Shown piece by piece: positions 3,353 through 62,034 of a stretch of DNA of 64,000 nt. The stretch comes from a virus. Its lineage: Duplodnaviria > Heunggongvirae > Uroviricota > Caudoviricetes. Location: IMG/VR virus record IMGVR_UViG_3300021438_000001, positions 39,453 through 103,452 of that record. One strand, 5' to 3'. The notes beneath the pieces are model-generated. The model did no database searches. It saw nothing but the letters and a program-made list of their open reading frames with translations, and was not told the DNA's origin. Within the stretch, counting starts at the first letter, position 1. Every line of letters begins with the position of its first letter. The position numbers and the translations under genes are program-made.

Positions 3353-3361
3353 AAGGTAAGT

Positions 3362-4048: not shown

Positions 4049-4310
4049 GTACCGCACAACAACCTATTGGAGCGCGACGCTGCCCGATCCACTCACGCCA
4101 CCGGCCCCTGGCTTTCGATTGCGTGATTTTAAGGCGGTAACAACCTCTGAATCGGAATCGCACACGGTAGTGGATAGGATCAGCTCAATTGCCAATTCAA
4201 GTGGCGTCTATTCGGGCATCAATATCCCCTACACGCAAAGCGTCATGAAGAGCAAGACGATTCAGTGGGTGGTCTTGTGGGAAAAATATGTAGAACAGGA
4301 GAATGAATGA
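4041..4310 (+). CDS. hypothetical small protein
   Basis: 89-aa ORF; ATGA overlap with the dnaE start. Confidence 0.25.
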   Translation: MYEYRTTTYWSATLPDPLTPPAPGFRLRDFKAVTTSESESHTVVDRISSIANSSGVYSGINIPYTQSVMKSKTIQWVVLWEKYVEQENE

Positions 4311-7300
4311 ACTTGAATCACATGATGGCAGCGAGGTCTGACTTCAGCATTGGCGAATCAATGCTCCAGATCGAACACCTCGTTGCCGACGCAAAGGAGA
4401 AGGGCTATGAGTCCATCACGCTGATGGATACAATGTCACTGCACGGCATGGTGGACTTCACCAACCGCTGCAAGAAAGCAGGCATCAAGCCGATTATCGG
4501 CTGCCGCATTCGTGTCTACGAAGACCCCACCTACCGCAAGCCGAGCAAGGCAAGCGGTGAGCGCGAGAAGCCCAACCCGAGCTTTGGACTGAAGGTCTAC
4601 ATCAAGACTGAAGCCGGCGTCCACGCGCTGATGAAGCTGCTGTCCAAAGGCTTCACCAACGAGTACTTCTACTATCACGCCAGGGTAGGGCTGGCAGATG
4701 TGCTGACGCTCGGCGCTGATGATGTGGCGGTTTCGACTGGCGACCTGTTCAGCATCTGGCACCTCGAACCGACAGTCGTCCAGAACACCATTGAACAGCT
4801 TCAGAGCCACTTCGGTGCGGCCAACGTCTTCGCTGAGTTGTCCCCGATCAACACGCCCCTGTTCGACACGCTCAACGCAAAGGCGATCACCGCAGCTCGT
4901 GCGAACGCCATGCCGCTGCTGGTGACTTACCCCACCTTCTACCGCGATGCAGATGCTGCGGATAGCCTTGAGGTGCTGAACTGCATTACCTCGAACACCA
5001 AAATGGAAGCCGCCTGGCGCCCCATTCAATTCGTCAAAGACTTCTACATTCACGAGCCGAACAAGCTGGTGGAGCGCATCAAGGGCGCAAGCAAGCGGCT
5101 CGCTGAGTTCTCCGCCACCGCAGATGCAAAGGCGTGGGTTGAAGGGCTGTCCAATGTCGAGAAGCTGGTTGAAGACTGCTCGTTCCAGTTTGCCAAGCTG
5201 CCGGTGTCGCTGCCCAAGATGGCCGACAACGAGTTCTTGGCGCTCGGTAAGAAGTGCATCGAGGGCTGGAAGCGCCGCTTCGAGAACCCCGTTCTCGGTC
5301 ACAAGCCCAATGCGGCTGAACTGAAGGTCTACCAAGAGCGGCTGAACTACGAGCTTGGCGTTCTTAAGAAGATGGGCTTCGCAGGCTACTTCTTGCTCGT
5401 GGAAGACCTCGTGATGTGGGCAAAGAAGAACAACATCATCGTTGGCCCAGGTCGTGGTTCGGTGGGTGGTTCGCTGGTCGCCTACCTGATCGGCATCACA
5501 GACGTTGACCCCATCCGATTCGACCTCCTGTTCGAGCGTTTTATCAACCCCGAACGTCTTGACTTGCCAGATGCTGACTTGGACTTCATGTCTTCGAAGC
5601 GCCATCTGGTGATCGAGTACTTGACGGCAAAGTACGGTCTGGATCGCGTTGCAGGCATTTCGAACTACTCGACGCTTGCGAGTGCCTCCGCGCTGCGTGA
5701 CAGTGGTCGCATGTACGGTCTGAATGGCATCGAGCTGACCGCTACCAAACTTGTCCCCAAAGAACACGGTCAATCGTTTTCACTGACCGATGCAGCGAAG
5801 GCTGTACCTGAGATCGACCTGTTCAGGAACGAACATCCGGAAATCTGGAAGCATGCCTTGAACCTCGAAGGGGCAATGCGAGCGTTCGGTCGCCACGCCG
5901 CTGGCGTGGTCGTCGCTGGTGAGCCGCTGGTCAACCGTGCCGTCGTGGAGACGCGAGGGGATGACGCATCGCCAATCGTGTCTTGGGACAAGCGAGTGGT
6001 TGAAGACTGGGGCTTGGTCAAGATGGATATTCTGGGCCTCTCCACGCTCGACGTGCTGGAGATCGCCCGTCAGTACATCAACGACCGTCACGGCGTTGCC
6101 ATTGACTACATGCAACTGCCGCTTGAAGAGACGGACATTATGGAAGCCTTCGGTCGTGGTGACACAACCGGCGTCTTCCAGTTCGAATCGCCAGGCATGA
6201 AGAAGCTGCTCCGTGACCTTGCTGTCGGCGGTACGCTGACCTTCGAGGACATTACCGCTGCGACTGCTCTGTATCGTCCAGGCCCGATGGACTCAGGTCT
6301 GATGGACGACTACGTTGCGATCAAGCAAGGGGTGAAGTCGCCGTACTACGACCACCCCAACATGGAACCCGCGCTTCGCTCCACCAACGGCGTGATCGTC
6401 TATCAGGAGCAGGTGATGCAGGTGGCGGTCGATCTTGCTGGCTTCACTCGCGCAGAAGCCGACCATCTGCGTAAAGCGATGGGCAAGAAAGACAAAGACA
6501 AGATGGCGGAAATGCGCCAGAAGTGGATCGACGGCTGTCTCGCCACGTCCGGACTCGATGACCGCACCGCCGGCAACATCTTCGATAAGATCGAAGCCTT
6601 CGCAGGTTACGGTTTCAACAGAAGCCACGCCGTTGAGTATTCCATCATCAGCTACTGGACGATGTGGGTGCGAGTGCGCTACCCCGCCGAGTACTTCGCC
6701 GCCTGTATGTCGATTGTGGACGAAGAGAAGCTGCCAGGGCTGGTGTCGGACGCTCGGGAGTACAAGATTCAGGTGATGCCACCTGATCTGAACACGTCCT
6801 CGCATCGGTACACCATCCCAGACGACAAGACCATCTTGGCACCGTTCTCTGCGGTCAAGGGCATCAGCGAGAACACCGCCTTGCGTATCGTTGAACTGCG
6901 AGAGCGCAACCGCACTTGGAAGCTGGAGCGCGTGAAGAAGAAGCGTGACGGCACGACGGAGAACATCTACGAGCTGGATGAGACTTCGCCGGTCAAGGGG
7001 CGCTTCGACTCGCCTGATGAGTTCGTGATGGCTGCCGCGCAGCCAGGCTCGAAGGTGAACAGCAAGGTGGTGGAGAACCTGCGTCTCGTGGGTGCGTTTG
7101 CAGCCATTGACCCCGCAGAGCTGTCACCGCTGCACTTCAGCCGCCGCAAAGCCCAGATGGAGCTTCTGCCTGGACTGATCATTGACGATGTGAAGGCTGA
7201 CCGCACGACCGATCTGAGCGCCGGCTTCGTCCGCACCAAGATCATCGAGGTGGTTCAGGACTACAAGAAGTGCAGTGGCTGCACTCTGGCTGGCGAACCA

Positions 7301-7777
7301 CATCCGAGCATTCGCTGCAAGACGAACGTCCGCTTCATGGTGGTGTCCGACTGTCCGACCTGGCAGGAGGAGAAGAAAGACAAGCTGCTCGAAGGCGACT
7401 CGGCTCAGTACATCAAGCAGGCGATCAAAGACGCCGGCCTGTCAGTGACTGACGGCTACTACACCACGCTGGTCAAGGCGAAGAAGAGCGACAAGTTCTT
7501 GGCGAACGAACAGATCAACGGCTGTGCCAAGTTCATCGACCGCGAGCTGGAGCTGATCAAGCCTGCGATCATCGTTGCGCTCGGTTCGGCCACGATCAAG
7601 AAGTTCTTGCCGTCCATCAAGGGCGGAACCGCTGAGTTGGCCGGCAAGTCGTTCTACGACCCCAAGCTCGATGCCACGATTGTCTGTGGCATCAACGCGC
7701 AGCAGATTGGCTTCGATCCGACCAAGCAAGACGTTTTGGATGAGGTGTTCCGCAAAGTCGCCGACATTCTCGCCTAA
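4307..7777 (+). CDS. dnaE: DNA polymerase III alpha subunit (DnaE-type replicase) with a C-terminal family-4 UDG-like domain
   Basis: PHP domain at the N-terminus. Core motif GFAGYFLLVEDLVMWAKKNNIIVGPGRGSVGGSLVAYLIGITDVDPIRFDLLFERFINPER. The last ~170 aa (from CSGCTLAGEPHP ... KPAIIVALGSATIKKF) match the family-4 uracil-DNA glycosylase fold pattern. Confidence 0.9.
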   Translation: MNLNHMMAARSDFSIGESMLQIEHLVADAKEKGYESITLMDTMSLHGMVDFTNRCKKAGIKPIIGCRIRVYEDPTYRKPSKASGEREKPNPSFGLKVYIKTEAGVHALMKLLSKGFTNEYFYYHARVGLADVLTLGADDVAVSTGDLFSIWHLEPTVVQNTIEQLQSHFGAANVFAELSPINTPLFDTLNAKAITAARANAMPLLVTYPTFYRDADAADSLEVLNCITSNTKMEAAWRPIQFVKDFYIHEPNKLVERIKGASKRLAEFSATADAKAWVEGLSNVEKLVEDCSFQFAKLPVSLPKMADNEFLALGKKCIEGWKRRFENPVLGHKPNAAELKVYQERLNYELGVLKKMGFAGYFLLVEDLVMWAKKNNIIVGPGRGSVGGSLVAYLIGITDVDPIRFDLLFERFINPERLDLPDADLDFMSSKRHLVIEYLTAKYGLDRVAGISNYSTLASASALRDSGRMYGLNGIELTATKLVPKEHGQSFSLTDAAKAVPEIDLFRNEHPEIWKHALNLEGAMRAFGRHAAGVVVAGEPLVNRAVVETRGDDASPIVSWDKRVVEDWGLVKMDILGLSTLDVLEIARQYINDRHGVAIDYMQLPLEETDIMEAFGRGDTTGVFQFESPGMKKLLRDLAVGGTLTFEDITAATALYRPGPMDSGLMDDYVAIKQGVKSPYYDHPNMEPALRSTNGVIVYQEQVMQVAVDLAGFTRAEADHLRKAMGKKDKDKMAEMRQKWIDGCLATSGLDDRTAGNIFDKIEAFAGYGFNRSHAVEYSIISYWTMWVRVRYPAEYFAACMSIVDEEKLPGLVSDAREYKIQVMPPDLNTSSHRYTIPDDKTILAPFSAVKGISENTALRIVELRERNRTWKLERVKKKRDGTTENIYELDETSPVKGRFDSPDEFVMAAAQPGSKVNSKVVENLRLVGAFAAIDPAELSPLHFSRRKAQMELLPGLIIDDVKADRTTDLSAGFVRTKIIEVVQDYKKCSGCTLAGEPHPSIRCKTNVRFMVVSDCPTWQEEKKDKLLEGDSAQYIKQAIKDAGLSVTDGYYTTLVKAKKSDKFLANEQINGCAKFIDRELELIKPAIIVALGSATIKKFLPSIKGGTAELAGKSFYDPKLDATIVCGINAQQIGFDPTKQDVLDEVFRKVADILA

Positions 7778-46198: not shown

Positions 46199-46204
46199 TG
46201 CTCA

Positions 46205-46266
46205 TTTAGGGGCTGAAAAACAGCCTCAAAAACGCACCGAAACCCTGCGAAAAGCAGGGTTCTAAA
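46205..46266 (+). terminator. tandem terminator hairpins
   Basis: GGCTGaaaaaCAGCC and CCCTGCgaaaaGCAGGG followed by TTCT. Confidence 0.5.
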
Positions 46267-46369
46267 CCATTACATTAACTCCAAGGCGTAAGTCCCCGTC
46301 AGCATTGAAGAAAACGCCATTTCACGTCATGACATTTGGACACAGATGTAGTATGAGTATTGTCAGGAA

Positions 46370-47230
46370 ATGACTGTTTTTCGATGCAACAAACGACAAG
46401 CAAAAACATACCTTGGCCAGACCTCAAAACGACCGCTAAAACGAAGCCAAAAAGCAATCAATATCACCGACCTCAGACAAGCAGGAAAAGAGCTTAAAAA
46501 CGATTCTATAAGGTCGGCCTGTAAGCGCGAACCTCAAGGCCAGAACCCTAAGCAACCAGACGCAGGCCACCGAAACCTAAAGCTACCGGAGCAGGCCAGG
46601 AACCGGAACCTAGAACTCCCAAAATCCCCGCGACAATTCAATCTATAAGCCTAAGAACAATACATAAGTAATTAACGCCAGAGAAGAAATCCCCAAAGCC
46701 CCAAAGCTCGGTCCCGAACAGAATCAGGAACCGGCACGGAGTACGGCAGCAAGGCTGAATAGAGCTTCATGGCACCGAGCAACCCAGACGACCAAAAGCT
46801 GCAAGGCATAGGAAACGCTCAAAGCCGAACTCCTAAGGAACCAGAGTCAAAACCCAATCAAGAAACGCTAAGGAATAAACCAAAGCGAATCCAGCCCCAA
46901 AAGCAACATCGGCAACCAGAACAGCTATAGGAAAACACCAAACGCAACCAGACCGGAATCAGGCAACAGCTACAGGAAAAACAATCTCGTCACACAACAG
47001 GAGAACAACGACACGGAACCGGACAACGACCACAAAGCGCATAGACACAAGGAACAGGAAGATCAATCACACATAGGGAATGAATTAAGAGAGGATCAAG
47101 AAACATAGATAGGAGAGAACAATGAATGAACGGAAAACGCACCAAAGATGCACCAAATAGGGGTGAAGTAATCCCTCGACGAAAAACGCTTCGAAATGCC
47201 AAACCTTACACATAAAAAATTCGCCCGCGA
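46370..47230 (+). other. A+C-rich, T-depleted non-coding tract with GGAACC(G/A)G-like periodic motifs
   Basis: Read directly: long runs such as caaccagaacagctataggaaaacaccaaacgcaaccagaccggaatcaggcaacagctacagg; no credible ORF. Confidence 0.5.
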
Positions 47231-47584
47231 ATCGCCTAGGCATCCCACAACGCCTAGGAACCATGCGGGTTTGCGGGGCAGGGTACGGCTCCAAGGCTGA
47301 GTACGGCCGACCGGCTGAATAACGTCCTAGGAGGTTGAGATACGGCTCCAAGGCTGAATGTTGGACGTTGGCGGTATAAGAGTGCATCGCCCTATGTATA
47401 AGTTCCCCTATAAGCTCCTAGGCATCCCTAGGCGTCGCCCTATAAGAGTCCCTATAAGGTTTTGGCGTTCGCCCTATAAGGTTAGGCAACTTGCATGGAG
47501 ACTTTGTATAAGGTTGATTAGGAACGATCTTTTTCGCTTACAGTAAAAGCACTGAGATTTTTCAGTTCAACGAAAGACGTTCCT

Positions 47585-47854
47585 ATGAACATACTCGACG
47601 CCTGCAACCTAACCGACGAAGAAGCAGACACCGCTGTCCTACTCGTCAACACCTTCGGTCACTGCGTACAGGAAGCGAACGAAGAAAACATTTATTACTT
47701 CACACCAGACTTCATGTTGGAAACCATCGCAAATGCGTTGGCCGCACAACACGCTGCAAAGAACCTTCGACCTGAGTTCTACCGACGAACCGCAAACCTC
47801 CAAGTCAAGCTGCTACGTCATCAGGCCGATTGGGGAAAGCTCAAATCCGCCTAA
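47585..47854 (+). CDS. hypothetical protein
   Basis: The only clean ORF in the gene-poor region; CTTGCAtggagacTTTGTATAAGG promoter-like motif ~90 nt upstream. Confidence 0.35.
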   Translation: MNILDACNLTDEEADTAVLLVNTFGHCVQEANEENIYYFTPDFMLETIANALAAQHAAKNLRPEFYRRTANLQVKLLRHQADWGKLKSA

Positions 47855-48080
47855 GACCATGAACCGAGCAGGCCACGCTCGGTTTTTCGTATCCAAACAC
47901 TCCCTAGGCATCCCTAGGCCAGACATGACCTTCACGCCTAGGCCGTAAGCATCGGTTCCTAGGCCGTAAAGCTTCGTCATCAGGCCATCTCATTGGAGAC
48001 TTGCCAGGCCACATGAAAAACAATCAAAAGTCGTGTTACATTGCAATCACTCGATTTTGAGTGATCAAAGAAAGCGTACT

Positions 48081-48332
48081 ATGAACTTCCGCCAATCAAC
48101 CTTCGTCTACACCATAGCAACAACCATCATTGGATTCGTTCTCGCAGCGTTGTGTGCGTTCGCACTCAGCTCGGAGACTGGTGGTGGTTACTTGCACATC
48201 TTCGGATTGTTCTTCTCAGGTGGACTGGTCATCGGTTCCTGGGTAAATGCTTTGCACGTTCTCGGTATGAGTGACTTCGCCGAAACCGACGAGTTCGGCA
48301 TGACGTACCCCAAAGTCGGTGAAACCGCATAA
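48081..48332 (+). CDS. small membrane protein
   Basis: 3 TM segments. Confidence 0.4.
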   Translation: MNFRQSTFVYTIATTIIGFVLAALCAFALSSETGGGYLHIFGLFFSGGLVIGSWVNALHVLGMSDFAETDEFGMTYPKVGETA

Positions 48333-48357
48333 GTCATCAATGACATAGGAGAACATC

Positions 48358-48546
48358 ATGAGCATGATTCAACCAGCACAACCAACCCCAACGAACCGCA
48401 TTCCTGAAGACAAGCGATTCGACTTCGCTGACACCTTCGAGGATCAGGAAGCGTACTACGACGAGATGCAGGAAGAGGTTGAGCTTCACATGCTTCGTCA
48501 GGGGCACGGAGTTCGGCGATCTCCCCGTCTGTACGACGAACGATGA
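48358..48546 (+). CDS. hypothetical small acidic protein
   Basis: TAGGAGAAC RBS after an ATAAGTCAtcaaTGACA box. Confidence 0.4.
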   Translation: MSMIQPAQPTPTNRIPEDKRFDFADTFEDQEAYYDEMQEEVELHMLRQGHGVRRSPRLYDER

Positions 48547-48821
48547 TCGAAGACAGCAGGGTGTGAGGAGAACTCACACCCTTTGTTCGTTGAAGACGCT
48601 GCCTAGGGATGCCTAGGAGTACGGCAAGACGGCTGAACAGAACCGCCTAGGAAGAGTGATCGACAGCCTCGGAGTACGGCTGGACGGCTGAATGAAATCG
48701 CCTAGGAGTACGGCTGGGTGGCTGAGTAGAGCAGCGTAGGAGGTCGGGGAGGTCAGGGCGGTCGGTGACGTTGGAGTCGCCGAAACGCGGATGAGAATCG
48801 TCCTCATCCAACTCTCCTATA

Positions 48822-48950
48822 AGACCCAAGACCAGTCTCCTAGGAGAGTAGTCTCCTATAAGACATAAGAGAAGTCTCCTAGGAGAGTAGTCTCCTGTCT
48901 CCTAGGAGAGTAGTCTCCTGTCTCCTATAAGACTTGATTGCCTGCCCGTG
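48822..48950 (+). repeat. iteron-like cluster: 3x palindrome TCTCCTAGGAGAGTAG interleaved with 3x TCTCCTATAAGAC
   Basis: Direct reading of 48,822-48,950; adjacent to an AT-rich stretch. Confidence 0.6.
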
Positions 48951-48984
48951 CGTTTACCATACAATCAAAACCCCTGCAAGCATT

Positions 48985-49035
48985 TGACGATTGAAAAAAT
49001 CAATCAGCACGATTGAAAAAATCAATCACAAAATG
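48985..49035 (+). promoter_or_regulatory. tandem palindromic operator-like sites GATTGAAAAAATCAATC (x2)
   Basis: Two identical 17-bp palindromes 20 bp apart in the AT-rich leader of the 49120 gene. Confidence 0.5.
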
Positions 49036-49119
49036 ATTGTTTTCTGGTTTGATTGTGTTATAGTTCAGTCATCGGTTGATTTTGACCGATACAACAAACC
49101 AACTTTTAAGAGGTACAAC

Positions 49120-49761
49120 ATGAGCAAAGCAAACGCAAACACTAGCAAAGCGAAGCAAGGTAAAAACGCAGTAGCAGCAAAGACCGACTATCAAGCGTTG
49201 ATCTTAGCAGCTATTCAAAAGCGAATCGACAATGCGGACAATGACAATCAACGCGACACGCTGCAAGCTGAATACAAGTTTTTCAATGACGCAAACGGTG
49301 CAGCTATTCTAAGCAAGTGCAGCGAAATTCAAGGTTTGAACCTTGCAGCATTGGTGCAACAAATTGCAGTTCTCAAGACAGAATCAAAGAGTGATTTTCT
49401 CGCAGTGTATGCACTGCAAAAGGTACGCAAAGCACTGTATGCACTCGCAAACAATGCGCGTTCATCGTTTGATGGTTATTCTAACTCTATCATGTTCAAT
49501 CTGGTGAAGCTGCAAACGGTGAACACCAAAGAGACGCGCATGAGCATTTGCAAAGCTATCGAATATAGCGAAACCGAACAAGTGCAAGCACTCAAACGCT
49601 TGCACAATTGCAGCGAATCGACCGCAAGCACTCAAGCAAGTAGCACGCGAATGATGCTCAAAGCGTTGAACCTTGCAAACGTGATCAAGTCAAAAAACAA
49701 TGACGCTATCACGCTTCAAGACAATGACGCAGCGCGCATGATTGTGACAATGTACGCTTAA
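49120..49761 (+). CDS. hypothetical protein encoded in a low-GC island (Ala/Asn/Lys-rich, alpha-helical)
   Basis: RBS AAGAGG; base composition markedly AT-richer than the rest of the window. Confidence 0.45.
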   Translation: MSKANANTSKAKQGKNAVAAKTDYQALILAAIQKRIDNADNDNQRDTLQAEYKFFNDANGAAILSKCSEIQGLNLAALVQQIAVLKTESKSDFLAVYALQKVRKALYALANNARSSFDGYSNSIMFNLVKLQTVNTKETRMSICKAIEYSETEQVQALKRLHNCSESTASTQASSTRMMLKALNLANVIKSKNNDAITLQDNDAARMIVTMYA

Positions 49762-50242
49762 CAGTGAAACCGATAGAGCGTGACACAATCACGCTCTATC
49801 AATGAAACCTATTGGAGATTGATAATGATTGATTTTATTGATTGTGCAGTAATTGCAATCGGTGCAGTGTACGTGATAGCGTGTCTCTATCGACCAGATG
49901 TGATGCTGTAATGTGAAAAAGAATACCGAAGTCCTAGAGATTTTCGGTTGCCTAGGAGGCGACCCCTTCCTCGTTCCGACCTCTCCCGAGCGCCCCTTAT
50001 ACAGCCAGGCAGACCCCTGAGATCACATCCTTATACAGCCGGCACACATAATGTAAAACGTACTTTGCAAAAGCGCCCCCAAGTGACAAATACGCTTTAC
50101 GTTAGTTCAGAATCCGTAAGACCGAGCGGAAAATGACCCGATGGGGACATTTCAGGCCCAAATCCCCACGTTCGCACCGAAAATGACCCGATGAGGACAT
50201 TTGCTTATCCTTATACAAGCAAAAAATTTCGAGGCGAGTGGG

Positions 50243-50614
50243 TCAAGATGGGAAATGAGAGCGCAACTTCTCGGCAAACAGGACTTTGACTCCGGCGGCT
50301 GTCGCCGCAGTCGTCATGTCCCGTGTGCCAGCACCGCCTTCGAAAGCGATGACGAGATCAGGTTTGCCAAGCTCCAGCATCAGCCTGTTGCGAATGGGGC
50401 CAGCGCGTGACCCGTGCTTCTTCCAGTCCGCAGGTACGCCAAAGCTCGTGCAACCGTCTTTCTGAGCTGCCCATTGCTCTGCGATGCTGTCAGCACCCGA
50501 CGCACAACCGTGGATGATCAGATTGATTGATTTTTTTGCGTGAATTGCGTCCAGAACGAAACTAATGAAATTTTTTTCGTTGTTGTCACGACCACCGCAG
50601 ACGAGGACTCTCAC
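50243..50614 (-). CDS. SLOG-superfamily protein (DUF2493/YspA-like, LOG-related Rossmann)
   Basis: VLVCGGRD...HGCASGADSIAEQWA...ADW.KHG.RAGPIRNRLML...PDLVIAFEGGAGTRDM matches the DUF2493 pattern. Confidence 0.55.
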   Translation of the reverse strand: MRVLVCGGRDNNEKNFISFVLDAIHAKKSINLIIHGCASGADSIAEQWAAQKDGCTSFGVPADWKKHGSRAGPIRNRLMLELGKPDLVIAFEGGAGTRDMTTAATAAGVKVLFAEKLRSHFPS

Positions 50615-50817
50615 CAGACCTCCCCGTAGCGTTCCTTGTACTGGCGCTCTGTCTCCATCTGCTGCTTGTGTTGAGCGGCACCCCTGCGCATCTGCGCCAC
50701 CATGCTCATCTGCGACTCCCGATCACAGGCGTTCCAAACCGCTGGCTTGATCTCGTGACCGGCGTCGAAGCCACACTCCAAGCGAAGCTGGCAGTACTCA
50801 TCGTAGAGGGTAGTCAT
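50611..50817 (-). CDS. hypothetical small protein
   Basis: ATGA-coupled chain on the - strand. Confidence 0.4.
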   Translation of the reverse strand: MTTLYDEYCQLRLECGFDAGHEIKPAVWNACDRESQMSMVAQMRRGAAQHKQQMETERQYKERYGEVW

Positions 50818-51026
50818 TTGTACCTCGCCATGTTGAGCTTGATGCGTTCTTCGTGAACCTCGATGCAGGCATTGCGAAGCTGTTGCAGCCTGGCTTTCTG
50901 CTCAGGTGTCTTGTCCTTGTCTGGCGTCTGGTGGATGTCGCAGATCGCACGGTTGTAGGCTGCCAGAACCCACTCCGAGACTGTCCACTCATCGACGGTG
51001 ATGGTGCAGATTGACGACGCCATCAT
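50814..51026 (-). CDS. hypothetical small protein
   Basis: Start trimmed to the ATGATG overlapping the upstream stop. Confidence 0.35.
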   Translation of the reverse strand: MMASSICTITVDEWTVSEWVLAAYNRAICDIHQTPDKDKTPEQKARLQQLRNACIEVHEERIKLNMARYK

Positions 51027-51226
51027 GCGTACCTGTCGTTCTTGAAGTCTTCGTCGGAAATGGCAAAGGTGCAATGCTGCGCCAGCGCATCTGCCGCCTC
51101 TTCCAGAAGGTCTGCGAGGCGGTCTGGTTTGCCTTCCTGCACCGACTTGCGCCCAGGAATTTGCCGACGAATCTCAGCCCGCTTGCGCAGCCGATACACG
51201 AGGTCTTCGATCTTGTTGGTCATCAC
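51023..51226 (-). CDS. hypothetical small protein
   Basis: GGAGG RBS before the ATG at 51226 (start MTNKIEDL...). Confidence 0.35.
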   Translation of the reverse strand: MMTNKIEDLVYRLRKRAEIRRQIPGRKSVQEGKPDRLADLLEEAADALAQHCTFAISDEDFKNDRYA

Positions 51227-51471
51227 GCCTCCAGTCGATACAGTTTGAATGGACGGCTCTTGTCGAGTCCGGCACTGCTTCGCACCCACTTGATCACGTC
51301 AGCACGGTCTTGGCTGGTCATCGTCATGGGGAAATTGCAGCCTTCGGTCATGTAGATCGCGACGTAGATGAATCGCTGGTTGGACGTGACCAGTTGCGGC
51401 TTGGGCGCGGCCAGCTCTTCGAGGTCGGCTTCCGTGAGGTCGCCCCAGTCGTTTGCCAGCTCATCCATCAC
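51223..51471 (-). CDS. hypothetical small protein
   Basis: Coupled chain. Confidence 0.4.
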   Translation of the reverse strand: MMDELANDWGDLTEADLEELAAPKPQLVTSNQRFIYVAIYMTEGCNFPMTMTSQDRADVIKWVRSSAGLDKSRPFKLYRLEA

Positions 51472-51710
51472 TTGCCTTCCAGGGCGATCTGGTGCATCAG
51501 CTCCAGCGTCTCGTTCTCGTCAGGCGTCATCGCATCCATGATCGCTTGGGCGTTGTCATGGTGGTCGAGGAACAAGAACTGCGCGGTCATCGCCTTCTCG
51601 TACTCACCCTCACTGATTCGCTGCCACATGAGCGCCAGCATGTAGACCGCCGACCACGCTTGGATCAGGTAATTCATCGGCTTGTTGATGTGGTGGGTCT
51701 TCTCCGTCAT
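51468..51710 (-). CDS. hypothetical small protein
   Basis: Coupled chain. Confidence 0.4.
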   Translation of the reverse strand: MTEKTHHINKPMNYLIQAWSAVYMLALMWQRISEGEYEKAMTAQFLFLDHHDNAQAIMDAMTPDENETLELMHQIALEGK

Positions 51711-52105
51711 TTCTTCTCCCAGAATGATTCGGCTTTTCCATAAAACGGAAAGGCTGCTTGTTTTTGTCCGTTATCCAGCGCCAGGCGGCCGCACTTCGGT
51801 GTGCGGCAGCGATGGTTCGGCCGGCAGCCAGGGCAGGGGTCGTCAGGTGGTGCGCCAGCCGCGACTTGCAGTTGTTCATTCGTGACTGATGTGTTGTCTG
51901 CCATAGCTGGCGGGTTGATGCGAACAGGTGGATGCGGTTGATTCCACCACAGCACCTTGCCACCCTCGGTGATAGCACCGTGGCGCGTCACGCCGTCTTC
52001 GCCAGGCATCGAAAAGCACACTCCGTTGATCTGCCAACCGGCGTTCTGAAGGTCATCGAGCTTGCGCTTGGCGACCCCTTGAAATTCGAGACAGACTGTG
52101 GTCAT
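51707..52105 (-). CDS. hypothetical protein with C-terminal Cys cluster
   Basis: DPCPGCRPNHRCRTPKCG. Confidence 0.45.
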   Translation of the reverse strand: MTTVCLEFQGVAKRKLDDLQNAGWQINGVCFSMPGEDGVTRHGAITEGGKVLWWNQPHPPVRINPPAMADNTSVTNEQLQVAAGAPPDDPCPGCRPNHRCRTPKCGRLALDNGQKQAAFPFYGKAESFWEKK

Positions 52106-52362
52106 GTCAGCTCCTTAAAGAAGAACCGAAACTTCTTGCCGCACTTGGGACATTGCTCGACCGTCTCGTTGCTTGTGACTTGCTCCAACCGCTCGGTCTT
52201 CGTGTCGTCATAGGGGCACAGAGCCTCCATCTGAGGGCTGATGTCGAACATTGGCAAGAACGGCTGCTTCTCGCGCCTGGGGAACGTGTTCTGCCAGGCG
52301 GTAGTGAACTGATCGACAGGCACCACGAATGGACGTGGTGCGCTGCCCTTGCCGCCGCTCAT
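52102..52362 (-). CDS. zinc-ribbon small protein
   Basis: EALCPYDD...EQCPKCGKKF. Confidence 0.45.
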   Translation of the reverse strand: MSGGKGSAPRPFVVPVDQFTTAWQNTFPRREKQPFLPMFDISPQMEALCPYDDTKTERLEQVTSNETVEQCPKCGKKFRFFFKELT

Positions 52363-52658
52363 GTCTCGTCTTTCGGCAGTTGGGCTGCCAGGGCTTCGAG
52401 CTGCTCGGGGGTGAGCTTGCTCAGACGCTTCAGAATGGCGGTCTTGCCGGTGCGACCAGCTACCTTGGCCTCACGACGAGCCTTGAACGCTTCTTCCAGC
52501 TTGCCCATGTCGGCGCTGTCCATGAGCGTCTCAACGACCGCACCTTGAGAAATCTTGTAGGTCTTGGCGATCTTGGCGAGCTTCTCCTGCACGGTCTGCT
52601 CGACCACGATGGCGTAACGCTTGCCCTTCTCTTCGGCAACGTGGGTTTCCGTAGTCAT
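52359..52658 (-). CDS. small DNA-binding regulator, ribbon-helix-helix-like
   Basis: GGAGAAA RBS before the ATG at 52658; KRYAIVVEQTVQEKLAKIAKTYKISQGAVVETLMD; first gene downstream of the - strand promoter and operator. Confidence 0.4.
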   Translation of the reverse strand: MTTETHVAEEKGKRYAIVVEQTVQEKLAKIAKTYKISQGAVVETLMDSADMGKLEEAFKARREAKVAGRTGKTAILKRLSKLTPEQLEALAAQLPKDET

Positions 52659-52679
52659 GTGTTTCTCCGTTGAAAAATG

Positions 52680-52725
52680 ATTGTGTTTGCTAAGTATACA
52701 ACAGCAAACCTTATACAAGCAAAAC
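52680..52725 (-). promoter_or_regulatory. promoter-like TTGCTTGTATAAGG motif plus TTTGCTgttgtatacttAGCAAA palindromic operator (- strand)
   Basis: Reverse-complement reading of 52,680-52,725; lies directly 5' of the RHH-like gene. Confidence 0.45.
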
Positions 52726-52798
52726 GATGGGCAAAAAAATAGCCCCGTAGATGGGGCTAGAGGTTAGGAGGTAAAAACTGATTATACCGTCGATTCGC

Positions 52799-52990
52799 TT
52801 ATTTCTCTTCGTGGTGAACAAATCCGATGGGATTTCCCTGTTCTTCTTCGTCCTGATCGGCAAGCATAAGACCAAACGGCATTTCCTTGAGGAACATCAG
52901 GGCAAATAGCGCGAGGGGATTACTTGTCAGAATGATGGTCAGAACGATAGCGCCGATGATTGCGAGGTTGATGAGGAGTGCGTGGAGCAT
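52799..52990 (-). CDS. small membrane protein
   Basis: 63 aa, 2 TM. Confidence 0.35.
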   Translation of the reverse strand: MLHALLINLAIIGAIVLTIILTSNPLALFALMFLKEMPFGLMLADQDEEEQGNPIGFVHHEEK

Positions 52991-53056: not shown

Positions 53057-54598
53057 TTAGGCGGTAGCGGCGCTGAAGATTCCGTAGTCGAAGTCAGCCT
53101 CATCCGGAAGCACGTTCTCCCCGAAACCCTCGGTATCGGTGACGATCTGGCGGCGCTGCTGCGCGTGAGACTTCAGGTAGGTGTTGAAGTCGTCTTGGAA
53201 GTCGAGAATGAACGCGCAGTTCGGCCCTTTCTTCTTGGCTCGAAGACCGCGACCGATGCGCTGGCGCAGCGCAACCTCGGCCTTACCACCGCCACCCAGA
53301 ATCACCATGCCGACTGCGGGAACGTCTACACCAACGTCCAGAATGGTCGAACCGATCAGAACGTCAATTGCACCAGTGGCGAGCTGTGAGAGTGCTTGCT
53401 TGCGCTCCGCTTGGTCATTGTCACCGTCGATGAACCGCGCACGTACACCTGCTTCGAGGAGCATGTCGCGCAGAAGGTGTCCATGCGCTTTCTGCTGGAT
53501 CAGAATCATGGTCGAGAGCTTGTGGCGAGCTGCTCGGGTCGCTTCGGCAATCATGATTGCGTTGCGCTCGACGTTCTGGACGATACCCAGACGGTAGGCA
53601 GCCTGCCAGGGCGTGCCGCGCAGCAGATGCTGAGGCTTTTGCTTGAGCTTGGCGTACTTGAAGATCGGACGAGCAAGAATGCCTCGGTCGATGAGCATCT
53701 TCTCGGTCACTTTGATGCCGATTGAGCCAAACGCAGCCATCAGACGCATGTTGGACTCTTCGTTGTCCTTCATGAATGGCGTGGCGGTCAGCGCCAGGCG
53801 GTAATGAGCATTCTTGCAGTGGCGAAGAATCTCGTAGTAGCTGTTGCCGGATGCCTCGTGCGCTTCCTCACCGATCACGAACTCGAATTTGCCCAGAAGG
53901 TCGATGGTTTGCTGACGGATCGCAGCCTGCTTGTTCTGCTGCTCGATGGTGTCGTCGGGGTTGGGTTCCTGAAGACGTGAAACGAGCGTCTGAACCATGC
54001 CAACCGACATTTTCTTGATGTACTGGCGTCCGTCCGCACCCGTGAAGCCGAATTGACCGTCGCCCAGTACCGAGCAGGGGATGCCGAGATCGTTCTCGAA
54101 CGTGTCCTTCATTTGGTACATCAGAATGCCGCGAGTGGTCAAAAACAGAGTAGGGCGGTTGATTCGCATGAACGCCAGGCGCGCAATGCGTGACTTGCCA
54201 CCGCCTGTGGCGACCTGAGCAATCATGGAGCCGTGCTTGCACAGCCGGTTCACCACTTCCATCTGATAGTCGTAGCGCGGGTCTTCGGGGAATGCGTCAA
54301 CCTTGGGGTTCTCGGGGCCTGTTGGCAGCGGCAAAGGCTTGCGAACGCGATTGACCTTGTAGCCCTCTCGCGTGAGCTGCGCCGCCACGTAGTTGACGAA
54401 GCCAGCAGGGAAGGTGCCGGTGCGGAAGTCAAAGAAGGACGACCGACCGTCCCAGTTGCCTGTTTTGAACGCCCCAGTATGTTCCGCACCCTCGACTCGG
54501 TAAGAAACATACTTCTGGACGGCCAATTTTGCTTGACGTGTCGGCTCATGCAGCTTGGCTGTCGTGGCGTTGTAGGCAATCGTTACGATTTCAGTCAT
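53057..54598 (-). CDS. SF2 DEAH-box DNA helicase
   Basis: Walker A VATGGGKSRIA, DEAH box IGEEAHEA, motif III LTATPF, arginine finger QRIGRGLR; AAAGGAA RBS; track start at 54625 over-extended. Confidence 0.8.
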   Translation of the reverse strand: MTEIVTIAYNATTAKLHEPTRQAKLAVQKYVSYRVEGAEHTGAFKTGNWDGRSSFFDFRTGTFPAGFVNYVAAQLTREGYKVNRVRKPLPLPTGPENPKVDAFPEDPRYDYQMEVVNRLCKHGSMIAQVATGGGKSRIARLAFMRINRPTLFLTTRGILMYQMKDTFENDLGIPCSVLGDGQFGFTGADGRQYIKKMSVGMVQTLVSRLQEPNPDDTIEQQNKQAAIRQQTIDLLGKFEFVIGEEAHEASGNSYYEILRHCKNAHYRLALTATPFMKDNEESNMRLMAAFGSIGIKVTEKMLIDRGILARPIFKYAKLKQKPQHLLRGTPWQAAYRLGIVQNVERNAIMIAEATRAARHKLSTMILIQQKAHGHLLRDMLLEAGVRARFIDGDNDQAERKQALSQLATGAIDVLIGSTILDVGVDVPAVGMVILGGGGKAEVALRQRIGRGLRAKKKGPNCAFILDFQDDFNTYLKSHAQQRRQIVTDTEGFGENVLPDEADFDYGIFSAATA

Positions 54599-54604
54599 CA
54601 AATT

Positions 54605-54640
54605 CCTTTTGTGTAAGGCTTGCAAAGTCTTTGTATAAGG
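54605..54640 (+). promoter_or_regulatory. promoter-like CTTGCAaagtcTTTGTATAAGG motif in a divergent intergenic region
   Basis: Same composite motif as at 47492; followed by a GTCAgcaaTGAC palindrome. Confidence 0.4.
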
Positions 54641-54716
54641 ATTATAGTTCAGTCAGCAATGACTAACAAATCCATTAGGCCCGTCCGTGAGTAATTCCAA
54701 AAACATCAAGGTGGAG

Positions 54717-55346
54717 ATGATTGACCCAGGGCGGCTTTCGCCAAACCCCTGGAACACCAACATCGTTTCACCCGAAAACATGGCGAAGCTCGATGCCAGC
54801 ATCGAACGACTTGGCCTGTTCAAACCAATCGTCGTCCGAGAACTCAAAGACGGCTCTCTCGAAATCCTCGGTGGCGAACACCGATGGGAGTCGGCAAAGC
54901 GCCTGGGCCACCAGAGTGTGCCTATCGTCAACCTCGGTAGCGTCACAGACAAGCGAGCCAAAGAGATTGGCCTTGTCGATAACGGTCGCTACGGGGCCGA
55001 CGACACGCTTCAGCTTGCAGGCTTGCTCGATGACCTTGGTCTGAGTCCAGAGGAGCTGTCGAGCTTCATGCCTTATTCCGAGAGCGACTTCGCGTCGATC
55101 TTCTCAAGCGTGAATATAGAGCTGGATGACCTTGACCTCGATGACGGGGATAGCGAACCCCAACTGCCGGCAACCAAACCCACCCAGACGCATCAAATTA
55201 TGCGTTTCAAAGTCCCAGTCGAGGACGCAGGAGCCATCTCCGAGCTGATCGAGAAAACCATGAAGGAGCAACGCTTTGTCGATGAAGATTCACTTTCTAA
55301 TGCCGGCAATGCCCTTGTTTTCCTCATCGGAGCCACAGGAAAGTGA
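54717..55346 (+). CDS. ParB-like nuclease domain protein (paralog 1)
   Basis: ParB N-terminal domain pattern: LEILGGEHRWESAKRLG ... VPIV; GGTGGAG RBS. Confidence 0.55.
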   Translation: MIDPGRLSPNPWNTNIVSPENMAKLDASIERLGLFKPIVVRELKDGSLEILGGEHRWESAKRLGHQSVPIVNLGSVTDKRAKEIGLVDNGRYGADDTLQLAGLLDDLGLSPEELSSFMPYSESDFASIFSSVNIELDDLDLDDGDSEPQLPATKPTQTHQIMRFKVPVEDAGAISELIEKTMKEQRFVDEDSLSNAGNALVFLIGATGK

Positions 55347-55556: not shown

Positions 55557-56213
55557 ATGAGCAAGACAACCCTGCCAGGCCAAATCACGGTCTGGGACAT
55601 TGAGAAAATCAAACCCTATGACCTGAACGTCAAGAACCACGACGCCAGCCAAGTCGAACGCATCGCCAAGTCGATTCAAGAGTTTGGTTGGGACCAGCCT
55701 ATCGTCGTTGACAAGGACGGCGTGATCATCAAGGGTCATGGTCGCCGCCTGGCTTCTATCAAGCTCGGTCTGAAGCAAGTGCCGGTCTGGGTGCGTGACG
55801 ATCTCACCCCAGAGCAGGTTCGCGCCTCGCGCCTGGCAGACAATCGCGTTGCGATCTCTGACATCGACAGCGCCATGCTCCAGAAAGAGCTGGAATCGCT
55901 CAATTTCGACCTCGAAGGCATCTTCGACAAAAAGGAGCTGAACTTCCTCGAAGCGGACCTCGGCTCTGTTAATACCGACGCCTTCGTTGACGACATCGAG
56001 GTGGAGGTGGCTCGCCAGGCTGAGGACAGCACACGCACGGTCGAGAAGGTCGATTCCCGTGATGTGAAGATCGACAAGGCACTGGGCTTCAAGAGCATCC
56101 AGGGCAAAGACGAACGTCACGTCGCTGCGTTCATGGCGCAGGTTGAGAGTGAGACAGGCAAGGAGGGCGCTGAGGCGTTCGTTACCTTTGTCAAAACGCT
56201 GTTGGAGGGCTAA
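55557..56213 (+). CDS. ParB-like nuclease domain protein (paralog 2)
   Basis: VIIKGHGRRLASIKLGLKQVPVWV; GAGGAG RBS. Confidence 0.55.
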   Translation: MSKTTLPGQITVWDIEKIKPYDLNVKNHDASQVERIAKSIQEFGWDQPIVVDKDGVIIKGHGRRLASIKLGLKQVPVWVRDDLTPEQVRASRLADNRVAISDIDSAMLQKELESLNFDLEGIFDKKELNFLEADLGSVNTDAFVDDIEVEVARQAEDSTRTVEKVDSRDVKIDKALGFKSIQGKDERHVAAFMAQVESETGKEGAEAFVTFVKTLLEG

Positions 56214-60124: not shown

Positions 60125-60787
60125 ATGACAGAAGAAGTAATCAAAAAGAAAAAGCCGAAGCCTCGTAAGAACTCGCCCCGCATGTCTGCTCGCAAGTGGG
60201 CGGAAGCCGAAGCTCTGTGGGAGGCCGGCGAGATCACAGTTAATGAATTGGCGACCAAGTTCGGTTTGAGTCGCCAGGCGTTTCAACGCCACTTCAAAGC
60301 CCACGGTGTCGTGTTCGGCTCTAAGAAGGTCGAGCTGAAGAAAGCCGTTTCTGAAGGCGTGACGAAAGCAGTTCAAGAGGACGCACAAATCCTCGCAGCT
60401 CGCATTAAAGAGACGAAGGAAGAGCATTACAAGATGGCTTCCGGTCTGGCGAAGCTGACTTGGGCGGAGATTCTCAAAGCGAAGCAAGACAGCGTGCCTG
60501 TGGGCACCGCGATCATGAACCTGAAGGCGCTGGACACAGCGGCATCGGTTCTGAAGAAGACACGCGAGGAGCGTTACGCAGTCCTGGGTCTGGACAAAGA
60601 CGCAGTGGACGAAAACGACGTGCCGGAACTGGTGATCTCGGAACTGACCGCAGATCAGATCGAGGCATTGCGCAACCGCAGCTTCCAAGAGATTGACGAG
60701 ATCGACGTTGAAGTCGATGAAGACACCAGCAACAGCCTGGCCGACCCAGATGAGGACGGCGAAGACGATGTTGTCGAGGAGAAGTAA
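60125..60787 (+). CDS. terminase small subunit (HTH DNA-binding, acidic C-tail)
   Basis: Basic N-terminus, HTH ITVNELATKFGLSRQAFQRH; directly upstream of and ATGG-coupled to the large terminase. Confidence 0.5.
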   Translation: MTEEVIKKKKPKPRKNSPRMSARKWAEAEALWEAGEITVNELATKFGLSRQAFQRHFKAHGVVFGSKKVELKKAVSEGVTKAVQEDAQILAARIKETKEEHYKMASGLAKLTWAEILKAKQDSVPVGTAIMNLKALDTAASVLKKTREERYAVLGLDKDAVDENDVPELVISELTADQIEALRNRSFQEIDEIDVEVDEDTSNSLADPDEDGEDDVVEEK

Positions 60788-62034
60788 TGGCTCGACAGCG
60801 CGTCAATCTCTCACTTCACACCAAGCAGATGGAGGTCTTTCGCTCCACCTGCCGCTATCGCGTCGTTGTCGCGGGGCGTCGTTGGGGTAAGACCGCGCTG
60901 TCTCGCGTTCTGATCATCAAGAAGGCACAGAAAGCCAAGCAAAAAATCTGGTACGTGGCACCCACGTACAAGATGGCAAAGCAAATTATGTGGGTTGACC
61001 TGATGGATGCGATTCCGCGCAAGTGGATTCGCAAGGTCAACGAAACCAGCCTGACGATCACGCTGATCAACGGCACTCGCATCGAGCTGAAGGGCGCCGA
61101 CAAGCCGGACTCGCTTCGTGGCGTGGGTATCCACTTCCTTGTGCTGGACGAGTTTCAGGACATGGCGGAAGAGGTCTGGACGCTGGTTCTGCGACCCACT
61201 CTTGCTGACACAGGCGGCCATGCGATCTTCATCGGCACCCCAAAGGCGTACAACTACCTCTACGAGCTTTACAAGAAGGGCCAGAACAAGCGCCTGACGG
61301 CGACAAAGCAGTGGGAGAGCTGGCAGTTCCCCACGATCACTTCGCCGTTCATCCCGCTCGATGAGATTGAGGCGGCTCGGTCCGACATGGACGAGAAGAG
61401 CTTCCGACAAGAATTCGAAGCCAGCTTCGAAACCATGTCTGGGCGCGTCTACTACCCGTTCGACCGCAAGACCCACATCGGCAAGTACGAGTTCAATCCA
61501 AAGCTGCCCATCTGGGTGGGTATGGACTTCAACATCGACCCGATGTCCACGGTGATCTACCAACCGCAGCCCAGTGGCGAGCTGTGGGCGGTGGATGAGA
61601 TTGTGCTATTCGGCTCAAACACGGAAGAGGTCTGCGAGGAGCTGGAGAAGCGGTACTGGCGCCACCAGGCGCAGATCACCGTCTACCCTGACCCTGCCGG
61701 CGGACAGCGCCAGCACGCTCGTGGTGAAACCGACATGGACATTCTTCGAGAGAAGGGGTTCAAACGCATCAAGTACCGTCGCAAGCACCCGATGGTGGCT
61801 GATCGCGTCAACGCAGTGAATCGAATGCTGCGCGATGCCAACGGCAAAGTGCGCTTGAAGATTGACGAAAAGTGCAAGCACTTCATCAACGCGATGGAAC
61901 AAACCATCTACAAGAAGGGAACCCGAGAGGTCGATAAATCGGCCGGCGTGGAACACTCGGCTGACGCGGGTGGCTACTGCATCGAGCTGGAATTCCCAGT
62001 CCGCAAGATCGAGGTTGGTGGCATCTCGATTTAA
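60787..62034 (+). CDS. terminase large subunit
   Basis: Walker A VVVAGRRWGKT; Walker B/adjacent LVLDEFQD; C-terminal RNase-H-like nuclease region (VYPDPAGGQ). Confidence 0.85.
   Translation: MARQRVNLSLHTKQMEVFRSTCRYRVVVAGRRWGKTALSRVLIIKKAQKAKQKIWYVAPTYKMAKQIMWVDLMDAIPRKWIRKVNETSLTITLINGTRIELKGADKPDSLRGVGIHFLVLDEFQDMAEEVWTLVLRPTLADTGGHAIFIGTPKAYNYLYELYKKGQNKRLTATKQWESWQFPTITSPFIPLDEIEAARSDMDEKSFRQEFEASFETMSGRVYYPFDRKTHIGKYEFNPKLPIWVGMDFNIDPMSTVIYQPQPSGELWAVDEIVLFGSNTEEVCEELEKRYWRHQAQITVYPDPAGGQRQHARGETDMDILREKGFKRIKYRRKHPMVADRVNAVNRMLRDANGKVRLKIDEKCKHFINAMEQTIYKKGTREVDKSAGVEHSADAGGYCIELEFPVRKIEVGGISI

Follow-up and report, generated by a model that had tools for sequence, protein, structure and literature searches.

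A Phased Palindrome Array Upstream of a Conserved Winged-Helix Gene as a Candidate Early Operator Cluster in a Siphophage Lineage

The Palindrome Array and the CCTAGG Sites

The window analyzed here is a 64,000-nt stretch of phage DNA (positions 39,453 to 103,452 of IMG/VR record IMGVR_UViG_3300021438_000001), whose source is a siphophage of ~105-120 kb from the RHEph10 / Nickievirus / Acinetobacter phage-plasmid lineage. It contains an array of palindromes, followed by an AT-rich stretch and by the gene for a putative DNA-binding protein with a winged helix. A sequence-only reading had described the array as iteron-like and, from its position next to AT-rich DNA, had proposed a replication origin or else a packaging or terminal region. 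We confirm the palindrome cluster, which is far from random and is conserved in evolution. The following features make up the array, the AT-rich stretch and the gene:

48812-48933: the "iteron-like" array, six 14-bp palindromes GTCT(C/T)(C/A)TA(G/T)(G/A)AGA(C/G) and two lone half-sites
48938-48965, plus strand: sigma-70-like promoter match TTGCCT-16-TACAAT, a consensus match that adjoins the last palindrome
48989-49005 and 49011-49027: two GATTG-N7-CAATC palindromes, proposed operator sites
49056-49064, plus strand: extended -10 element TGtTATAGT, ~55 nt ahead of the ATG
49071-49090, plus strand: predicted stem-loop AUCGGU-UGAUUUUG-ACCGAU in the 5' untranslated region (5'-UTR), with loop and position kept in relatives and stems that differ
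49120-49761, plus strand: gene for an uncharacterized 213-aa protein, directly downstream of the AT-rich stretch

The true repeat unit of the array is a 14-bp palindrome, GTCTnnTAnnAGAC, in which GTCT and AGAC half-sites lie ~10 bp apart. Its copies start at 48812, 48835, 48851, 48874, 48897, and 48920, with centre-to-centre spacings of 23, 16, 23, 23, and 23 bp, and lone GTCTCCT half-sites start at 48890 and 48913. The six 14-bp sites are in helical phase and, within the window, restricted to the array locus. All 6 matches to the palindrome in the 64-kb window, with one mismatch allowed, fall inside the 122-bp array, against a chance expectation of 1.2, and none of 100 shuffled sequences gave six. 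The shorter palindromes reported earlier were all recovered: three copies of TCTCCTAGGAGA (48836, 48875, 48898), three of CTCCTATAAGAC (48814, 48853, 48922), the first of which begins ~9 bp before position 48,822, where the cluster had been taken to start, and two of GATTGAAAAAATCAATC (48989, 49011), each lying in one copy of an exact 20-nt direct repeat with a 22-bp spacing. Exact-pattern scans for the array gave no match in viral contigs, none in genome contigs and two in metagenome contigs, one of which is an unrelated high-GC bacterial palindrome (L022).

Scattered CCTAGG palindromes had also been noted upstream, and these are present at 47235/47253, 47326, 47417/47427, 47903-47958, and 48602-48701. 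All 17 copies of CCTAGG in the window lie within 2.7 kb (47,235-49,956; clustering P about 2e-21), with sites ahead of three separate transcription units. The motif forms the core of just three of the six array palindromes. Hexamer palindromes are otherwise strongly avoided across the window (1-64000): 36 of 64 are absent, compared with 100 of 4,032 non-palindromic hexamers, and 301 occurrences are observed where ~1,020 are expected, which suggests strong anti-restriction selection. As the genome avoids hexamer palindromes to such an extreme degree, the clustering of CCTAGG stands out as a striking exception.

The Winged-Helix Protein and Its Association With CCTAGG

The 213-aa protein has no Pfam match, and its PHROG matches are all of "unknown function." A tblastn search against phages gave no match, a PDB sequence search returned nothing, and Foldseek of the model against the PDB gave no significant full-length match, with no Rep structure among the top matches. 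The protein nevertheless belongs to a family, with 136 unannotated homologues, many of them on contigs of 95-112 kb. An alignment of 39 of the sequences, with identities down to 37%, contains an invariant block T-A-S-T-Q-A-S-S-T-R. The AlphaFold model (predicted local distance difference test score 89) combines a helical N-domain with a winged helix-turn-helix (HTH) at the C-terminus, the fold being one ArsR/MarR-like winged helix behind the helical domain. The invariant block corresponds to the third helix of the winged HTH, a putative recognition helix STASTQASSTRMML that hardly varies within the family.

In all relatives fetched, the gene is part of a syntenic module that consists of a long non-coding stretch, small open reading frames (ORFs) with repeat clusters, the winged-helix gene and a minus-strand block that ends in a UvsW-type helicase gene, followed by two ParB_N genes and an ABC-type ATPase. 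The synteny extends to a circular 105-kb Acinetobacter baumannii phage-plasmid, in which ArdA is encoded ahead of the non-coding stretch. The one motif conserved across all compared lineages is CCTAGG, clusters of which surround the homologue gene in eight other lineages, including E. coli, Acinetobacter, and Rhizobium elements. Counts of copies in or around the module, out of the total in the locus read, are as follows:

Window: 17/17
L025: 11/11
L013 (E. coli type): 6/6
L009: 7/7
L005: 20/21
L007: 2/2
A. baumannii phage-plasmid: 3/3, with 0 in another 50 kb of that plasmid
Rhizobium phage B1VFA: 9/10, around B1VFA_058

B1VFA_058 is itself a homologue with the helix NTASTQKSST (hhalign probability 96.6%). 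Two phages act as negative controls that fit the pattern of motif and protein. In Nican01, neither the syntenic position nor the remainder of the two loci read (54 kb) contains a winged-helix homologue, and CCTAGG does not occur in them. The helix of the distant RHph_N1_15 homologue is altered (ATAGTQASST), and the 23.6-kb locus read from that phage likewise lacks CCTAGG. Mainly because of this co-occurrence of motif and gene, together with the invariant helix, we propose that the winged-helix protein reads CCTAGG-cored sites. In relative L005, two paralogues of the gene (2967-3569 and 6001-6594) lie ~3 kb apart, each with ~60% identity to the window protein and each with a CCTAGG / CCTATAAG cluster ahead.

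Another pair of potential DNA-binding proteins is encoded downstream of the array:

54,717-55,346 and 55,557-56,213: two ParB_N genes, ~6 kb from the array, with products of ~210 aa

The array could consist of parS-like centromere or silencing sites for these proteins, serving partition, condensation or early-gene silencing in the manner of KorB at OB sites or of N15 SopB at dispersed centromeres. Clustered 14-bp palindromes and CCTAGG palindromes in promoter regions would suit such a role, the ParB_N genes are better conserved across the family than the winged-helix gene (54-63% against 29% identity to Acinetobacter), and ParA is encoded beside the module in some relatives. In the window, however, no ParA was found among the ORFs scanned, a set that left many small ORFs outside, and no HTH domain was detected in the ParB_N proteins. 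Moreover, Nican01 and RHph_N1_15 keep both ParB_N genes without having CCTAGG clusters, which makes ParB an unlikely binder of CCTAGG. We consider this explanation very improbable.

The array itself is less constant than CCTAGG. The closest relatives (L001, L002, and L003; 78-80% protein identity) carry it at the equivalent place, with identical half-sites in other combinations (GTCTCCT / AGGAGAC and GTCTTAT / ATAAGAC). In distant relatives the promoter-proximal repeats are replaced, by three copies of ATTGATTTATCTCATA in L005 and ~2.5 copies of TCTGTATATTCAGCTT in L009, and the Acinetobacter relative has a palindrome overlapping the promoter in place of an array ahead of the homologue. What persists across the distant relatives is the -10-like hexamer, the position of the hairpin, and the CCTAGG / GTACGGC modules.

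The AT-Rich Stretch: Promoter Elements or Unwinding Element

The AT-rich character of the DNA downstream of the array was borne out relative to the window. Positions 48,983-49,130 are its AT-richest and least stable 100-150 bp (67-70% AT against an average of 44%), with a duplex stability about +4 standard deviations within the window. Taken with its upstream margin, this stretch can be resolved into the sigma-70-like match, the pair of GATTG-N7-CAATC palindromes and the extended -10, followed by the hairpin and a ribosome-binding site ahead of the ATG at 49,120. The dyad-symmetric sites adjoin the candidate core promoter elements: the last array palindrome ends 4 bp ahead of the -35-like hexamer of TTGCCT-16-TACAAT, and the GATTG-N7-CAATC pair lies just 5' of the extended -10. 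Transcription starts are predicted near 48,972 and 49,072. The -10 block (TATCACACAATCA / TACAATCA) and the downstream CCTGCAAGCA are kept in relatives. For GATTG-N7-CAATC, the half-sites are kept in L001 and L002 and the centres vary, and more GATTG copies lie at 49035-49058 and 49817-49850, on either side of the winged-helix gene. Every relative read has a -10-like hexamer ~50-60 nt ahead of the ATG, and in these relatives the ribosome-binding site, the hairpin and the -10-like elements stand at a fixed distance from it.

Small hairpins with a GAUUUU(G) loop are predicted in the 5'-UTRs of all three transcription units (47551-47569, 48046-48067, and 49071-49090, plus strand), with stems that differ between units and relatives. 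They are based on single folds of the window, L001, L002, L003, L007, and L009; an alignment-based consensus fold was abandoned, as MAFFT misaligned the distant sequences. The individual z-scores are weak (-0.4 to -2.5), so that support for the hairpins comes from covariation. The conserved loops suggest a signal at the RNA level, such as one for stability, processing or protein binding.

An array beside the least stable DNA of the window could also be viewed as an iteron-type origin, at which the winged-helix or another phage protein would oligomerize on the palindromes, melt the AT-rich 150 bp and load the replisome, or at which transcription from the promoter would prime replication as in T4 and T7 origins. 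The part of the earlier origin proposal that stood is that phased dyad repeats directly adjoin the AT-richest stretch; no initiator, DnaA box or skew switch was found to accompany them. The arrangement resembles ori-lambda, in which four dyad-symmetric iterons are followed by an AT-rich region, and iteron replicons, in which Rep_3, RepA or pi proteins act on 17-22-bp iterons next to an AT-rich unwinding element and DnaA boxes. As in iteron plasmids, a gene for a winged-helix protein is adjacent and has inverted repeats in its promoter. The A-tracts are phased at 22 bp. A UvsW-type helicase is encoded 4 kb away, and in T4 UvsW clears origin R-loops.

Several observations stand against an origin. 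The 213-aa protein falls in no Pfam family and hence in no initiator family, and it has a single winged helix, in contrast to the two-winged-helix Rep proteins. A scan for the DnaA box TTWTNCACA gave two matches in 64 kb and none in 46.2-49.9 kb, the nearest being a weak minus-strand match at 49,912. The cumulative GC-skew, computed for the window only (64 kb of the genome), has no extremum at 48.8-49.1 kb and a minimum near 25 kb; changes in GC-skew and AT-skew track the gene-strand switches at ~50.0 kb (convergent) and ~54.6 kb (divergent). The site lies within a co-directional gene run, without divergence. Its palindromes are of mixed type, unlike the uniform asymmetric iterons of plasmids, and the array is lineage-specific, being absent ahead of the Acinetobacter homologue. 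The AT-rich bases are largely accounted for by the -10 elements, the 5'-UTR hairpin and the ribosome-binding site. Finally, since CCTAGG-type sites stand ahead of three separate early units, the pattern is that of a regulon and not that of an origin.

The plasmid-replicating relatives that were examined or are described in the literature also have replication functions elsewhere. In the Acinetobacter element examined, a separate RepB-family gene lies directly upstream of genes for a DnaB-like helicase and a primase, ~38 kb from the module round the circle; the corresponding DnaB / primase / Rep region of the phage studied here lies outside the window. Plasmid pABTJ2, a member of this lineage too, has four 22-bp iterons beside its own Rep_3 gene (PMC4411360), IncpKPHS1 plasmids with SSU5-like regions have repA with four iterons downstream (PMC6735626), and the RHEph10 group uses RepC (PMC4447125, PMC12509600). 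We consider an origin at the array possible, albeit unlikely, and weaker than the operator reading set out below. More generally, repeats plus AT-rich DNA alone are insufficient for calling an origin. The divergent region between the UvsW gene and the first ParB_N gene (54578-54717) ranks second in the window for AT content and instability over 100 bp and is, by gene orientation, an origin candidate no weaker than the array.

A Proposed Operator Array of an Early-Gene Regulon

Our favored reading, to which we assign a probability of roughly one half, is that the array would be a promoter-linked operator cluster of an early-region regulon, through which the winged-helix gene would regulate its own expression. 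We favor it because the geometry of the sites suits a dimeric HTH protein, the sites are phased at about two helical turns, the array adjoins promoter-like elements of the protein's own gene, and related sites lie ahead of the other early units.

In such a scheme, host sigma-70 RNA polymerase would, after DNA entry, transcribe three short units from extended -10 promoters. The units would start at ORFs 47585, 48081/48358, and 49120, and each mRNA would open with a small GAUUUU-loop hairpin. The product of the third unit, a putative dimer of the 213-aa protein, would bind CCTAGG-cored sites ahead of all three units and would bind cooperatively to the six phased 14-bp palindromes next to its own promoter region. 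Occupancy of these sites would throttle or time early transcription, resulting in autoregulation and early shut-off. The GATTG-N7-CAATC pair might form a second type of operator between the two promoter-like elements, with further GATTG copies flanking the gene. We infer here the pairing of binder and sites, the transcription starts and the direction of regulation.

Such an arrangement has precedents. Lambda OR and OL each consist of three 17-bp dyad sites, and the centre spacing in OR is close to the 23 bp of the array; the P1 C1 repressor acts on dispersed Op sites, and KorA and KorB of RK2 on OB palindromes near many promoters. The locus shares with these systems dyad sites of the size of an HTH dimer, spaced about two helical turns apart, the location of sites at or upstream of the promoters of several units, and a regulator gene inside the region it controls, with apparent autoregulation. 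In contrast to CI, C1, KorA, and KorB, the window protein is uncharacterized, has no Pfam match and no sequence relation to them, and its sites are putative. The array also differs in combining six sites and lone half-sites, with at least five other repeat families interleaved. The kind of element is known, and this family is not previously described.

Some points weigh against the operator reading. The promoter calls are consensus matches, and the scan gave fewer of them than shuffled sequences did. The promoter-proximal repeats differ between lineages (GTCT..AGAC here, ATTGATTTATCTCATA in L005 and TCTGTATATTCAGCTT in L009), whereas the putative recognition helix is the same. As the array sequence turns over in this way while the helix stays constant, and as only three of the six palindromes contain CCTAGG, the target of the winged-helix protein may be limited to the CCTAGG core, and the array may be bound by another protein. 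The two highly conserved ParB_N proteins are alternative binders. ORFs 47585, 48081, and 48358, which gave no family matches and are confined to the lineage that has the GTCT array, are likewise possible candidates. In addition, a regulatory role can coincide with a second role as origin.

A broader form of the proposal is tentative, and we rate it as doubtful: the winged-helix family, with its helix TASTQASST and no Pfam model, might govern, as master regulator, a "CCTAGG regulon" that is deeply conserved. The bound protein might then shield its sites from restriction, a notion prompted by CCTAGG being the only hexamer palindrome kept at high density in otherwise purged genomes, and the 3.7-kb segment around the array might be a terminal repeat that enters first. 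If this were true, the regulon would control the early anti-defense segment across phages and phage-plasmids of Rhizobium, Acinetobacter, E. coli, and freshwater hosts. The locus offers a testable handle, with a conserved DNA motif, a conserved and unannotated putative DNA-binding protein, and a defined candidate operator array.

The Low-Coding Early Segment and the Terminal-Repeat Alternative

The array is embedded in a larger segment. Plus-strand genes are continuous up to 46,198 and are followed by a low-coding segment of ~3.7-4.0 kb that extends to a convergent point at ~49.95-50.24 kb. It contains three short plus-strand units (ORF 47585; ORFs 48081 and 48358; ORF 49120), each preceded by clusters of repeats in one orientation, namely CCTAGG(C), GTACGGC-N5-GGCTGA, CCTATAAG, and CAGGCC. 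Of these, CCTATAAG has seven copies, all of them on the plus strand. The first and second units are followed by a terminator-like hairpin, and the second and third have extended -10 elements (TGtTACATT at 48,034 and TGtTATAGT at 49,056). The features outside the array and its promoter region are:

46199-47230, plus strand: long non-coding leader at the upstream edge of the segment, with a terminator-like hairpin at 46,240-46,262
47231-47584, plus strand: repeat cluster ahead of small ORF 47585-47854, with five CCTAGG, three TACGGC-N5-GGCTGA and four CCTATAAG
47855-48080, plus strand: terminator, then a repeat cluster ahead of ORFs 48081-48332 and 48358-48546, with four CCTAGG(C) and CAGGCC repeats
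48,034-48,042, plus strand: extended -10 (TGtTACATT) of the second unit
48558-48582, plus strand: terminator-like hairpin that ends the preceding small-gene unit, kept in L001 and L003
48602-48727, plus strand: three tandem modules CCTAGG-A-GTACGGC-N5-GGCTGA(A/G), spaced 55 and 34 bp
48789-48809: palindrome GGATGAG-AATCGTC-CTCATCC, with one or two copies at the equivalent place in most close relatives (in L005, repeat family D5)
49940-50242: convergent intergenic region that closes the segment, with the last CCTAGG (49951), three CCTTATAC(A)G/AGC and two CGAAAATGACCCGATGRGGACATTT

The view that the array occupies the only long non-coding region of the window was overstated: the 573-bp gap (48,547-49,119) is one among several, and larger ones exist at 46,199-47,584 (1,386 bp) and in the tRNA cluster. 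Within the leader, the plus strand is T-poor and A/C-rich over ~850 nt (46,400-47,230; A.41, C.29, G.20, T.10), and GGA motifs are frequent there. This composition, and not the sequence, is kept at the equivalent place in L001, in the E. coli-type L013 and in Rhizobium phage RHph_N1_15; the stretch might be a leader without structure, or an RNA that loads Rho or acts as a protein sponge. An Rfam scan of 45.5-50.5 kb gave no family at E ≤ 1.

The CCTAGG-A-GTACGGC type is the most widely conserved module among relatives. TACGGC-N5-GGCTGA occurs eight times in the window, on the plus strand only (37391, 46742, 47284, 47302, 47341, 48620, 48675, and 48709), often straight after CCTAGG-A-G. In relatives GTACGGC is kept and the second half is altered, to CTGGT in L001 and GATGA in L005. 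A sigma-54 or extracytoplasmic function (ECF) promoter was rejected by inspection for GTACGGC-N5-GGCTGA, as spacing and consensus are unsuitable. The CCTTATAC(A)G/AGC and CGAAAATGACCCGATGRGGACATTT copies of the convergent region are kept in L001, and the former (49990-50220) are the reverse orientation of a TATAAGG motif at 47.4-47.5 kb.

Anti-defense genes occur in the neighborhood, with a YAcAr/SLOG-family gene in the window, Tad2-like genes in the E. coli-type relative, and ArdA upstream in Acinetobacter. From this predicted gene content, the surroundings read as an early host-takeover, anti-defense region. The minus-strand block between the winged-helix and UvsW genes (50243-52990) has many small genes, including the one for the YAcAr/SLOG-family protein, and the equivalent block of L013 (9482-16357) has the Tad2-like (anti-Thoeris) genes; it is probably an anti-defense island.

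A segment of this kind could have a different meaning, that of a collapsed long direct terminal repeat. The low-coding ~3.7 kb (46.2-50.0 kb) would then be the first-entering DNA, like the first-step-transfer DNA of T5, and the arrays would be signals for terminase recognition or cleavage, or for the control of injection. Relatives with fixed termini have direct terminal repeats of 3,605 bp (B1VFA) and 3,939 bp (V1VFA-S) (PMC12509600), sizes that match both the window segment and the equivalent stretch of B1VFA (record positions about 38.84-42.5 kb), and Nican01 was scored as "DTR (long)," a long direct terminal repeat (PMC11256456). The large terminase subunit, TerL, is distantly similar to T5-like terminases, and the anti-defense neighbors suit expression first after entry. 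The 107-kb scaffold L010 begins 223 bp ahead of the homologue gene, with the tandem repeats of that gene following directly. T5-like phages, which are likewise large siphophages (~110-120 kb) of a lineage that has long direct terminal repeats, have conserved and complex untranslated regions of direct repeats, inverted repeats and palindromes among their small pre-early genes (bioRxiv 10.1101/866236). In contrast to T5, there is here no sequence or gene homology, the paired DnaA boxes of the T5 injection-stop signal ("iss") are absent, and the array is tied to a promoter and a regulator gene, a link that the location of a repeat alone would not explain.

The positions of genome ends give little further help to this alternative. 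The repeat position is unpublished for the relatives and not derivable for B1VFA, V1VFA-S, and Nican01 from the records or papers, as the records begin at arbitrary or terminase-based coordinates and annotate no repeat. Other complete contigs of 105-108 kb begin elsewhere, contig ends show no consistent signal, and Logan contigs L004 and L026 share a start at ~45,812 of the window and not at the array. The element is also present once in circular phage-plasmids, and the terminase genes are distant:

60,125-62,034: TerS-like and TerL genes, 11-12 kb from the array

A terminal repeat is, taken together, quite unlikely in our estimate; the locus is still the first region to check in mapping the long terminal repeats of these phages. 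The shared start of L004 and L026, which come from different sequencing runs, is at the identical base, 3,462 bp upstream of the homologue gene. This base falls 27 nt inside the gene that immediately precedes the non-coding stretch, and could be a breakpoint of strain variation or a physical end.

The Phage and Its Relatives

The window is only distantly related to named phages. DnaE identity to the closest of them is ~43%, and megablast of 47-50 kb against phages gave no match. The nearest named relatives are RHEph10-like Rhizobium phages, Pseudomonas Nickievirus and Stenotrophomonas phages, followed by SSU5-like and Acinetobacter phage-plasmids. These have been treated as a single, loosely related assemblage of phages and phage-plasmids (PMC7969092, PMC4447125). 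Widespread phage-plasmids, some of them with resistance genes, belong to the RHEph10 / Nickievirus / Acinetobacter-AB / SSU5-related lineage, for which we found nothing published on early regulation, the lytic origin or the positions of genome ends.

The window encodes a DnaE-type polymerase (4,307-7,777), SSB, an exonuclease, a UvsX-like recombinase, SbcCD and RuvC, as well as the UvsW-type helicase (53,057-54,598, minus strand), a class II ribonucleotide reductase, nine tRNAs and a sigma-70-family factor. It also encodes the two ParB_N proteins, the TerS-like protein, TerL and the portal. The sigma-70-family factor (2702-3352, 216 aa) matches Pfam Sigma70_r2 with 27.7 bits (cut-off 24) and PHROG 351. 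The DnaE-type polymerase (4307-7777) has, in its C-terminal region, a match to the uracil-DNA glycosylase superfamily (Pfam UDG, residues 1004-1105, E 4e-7).

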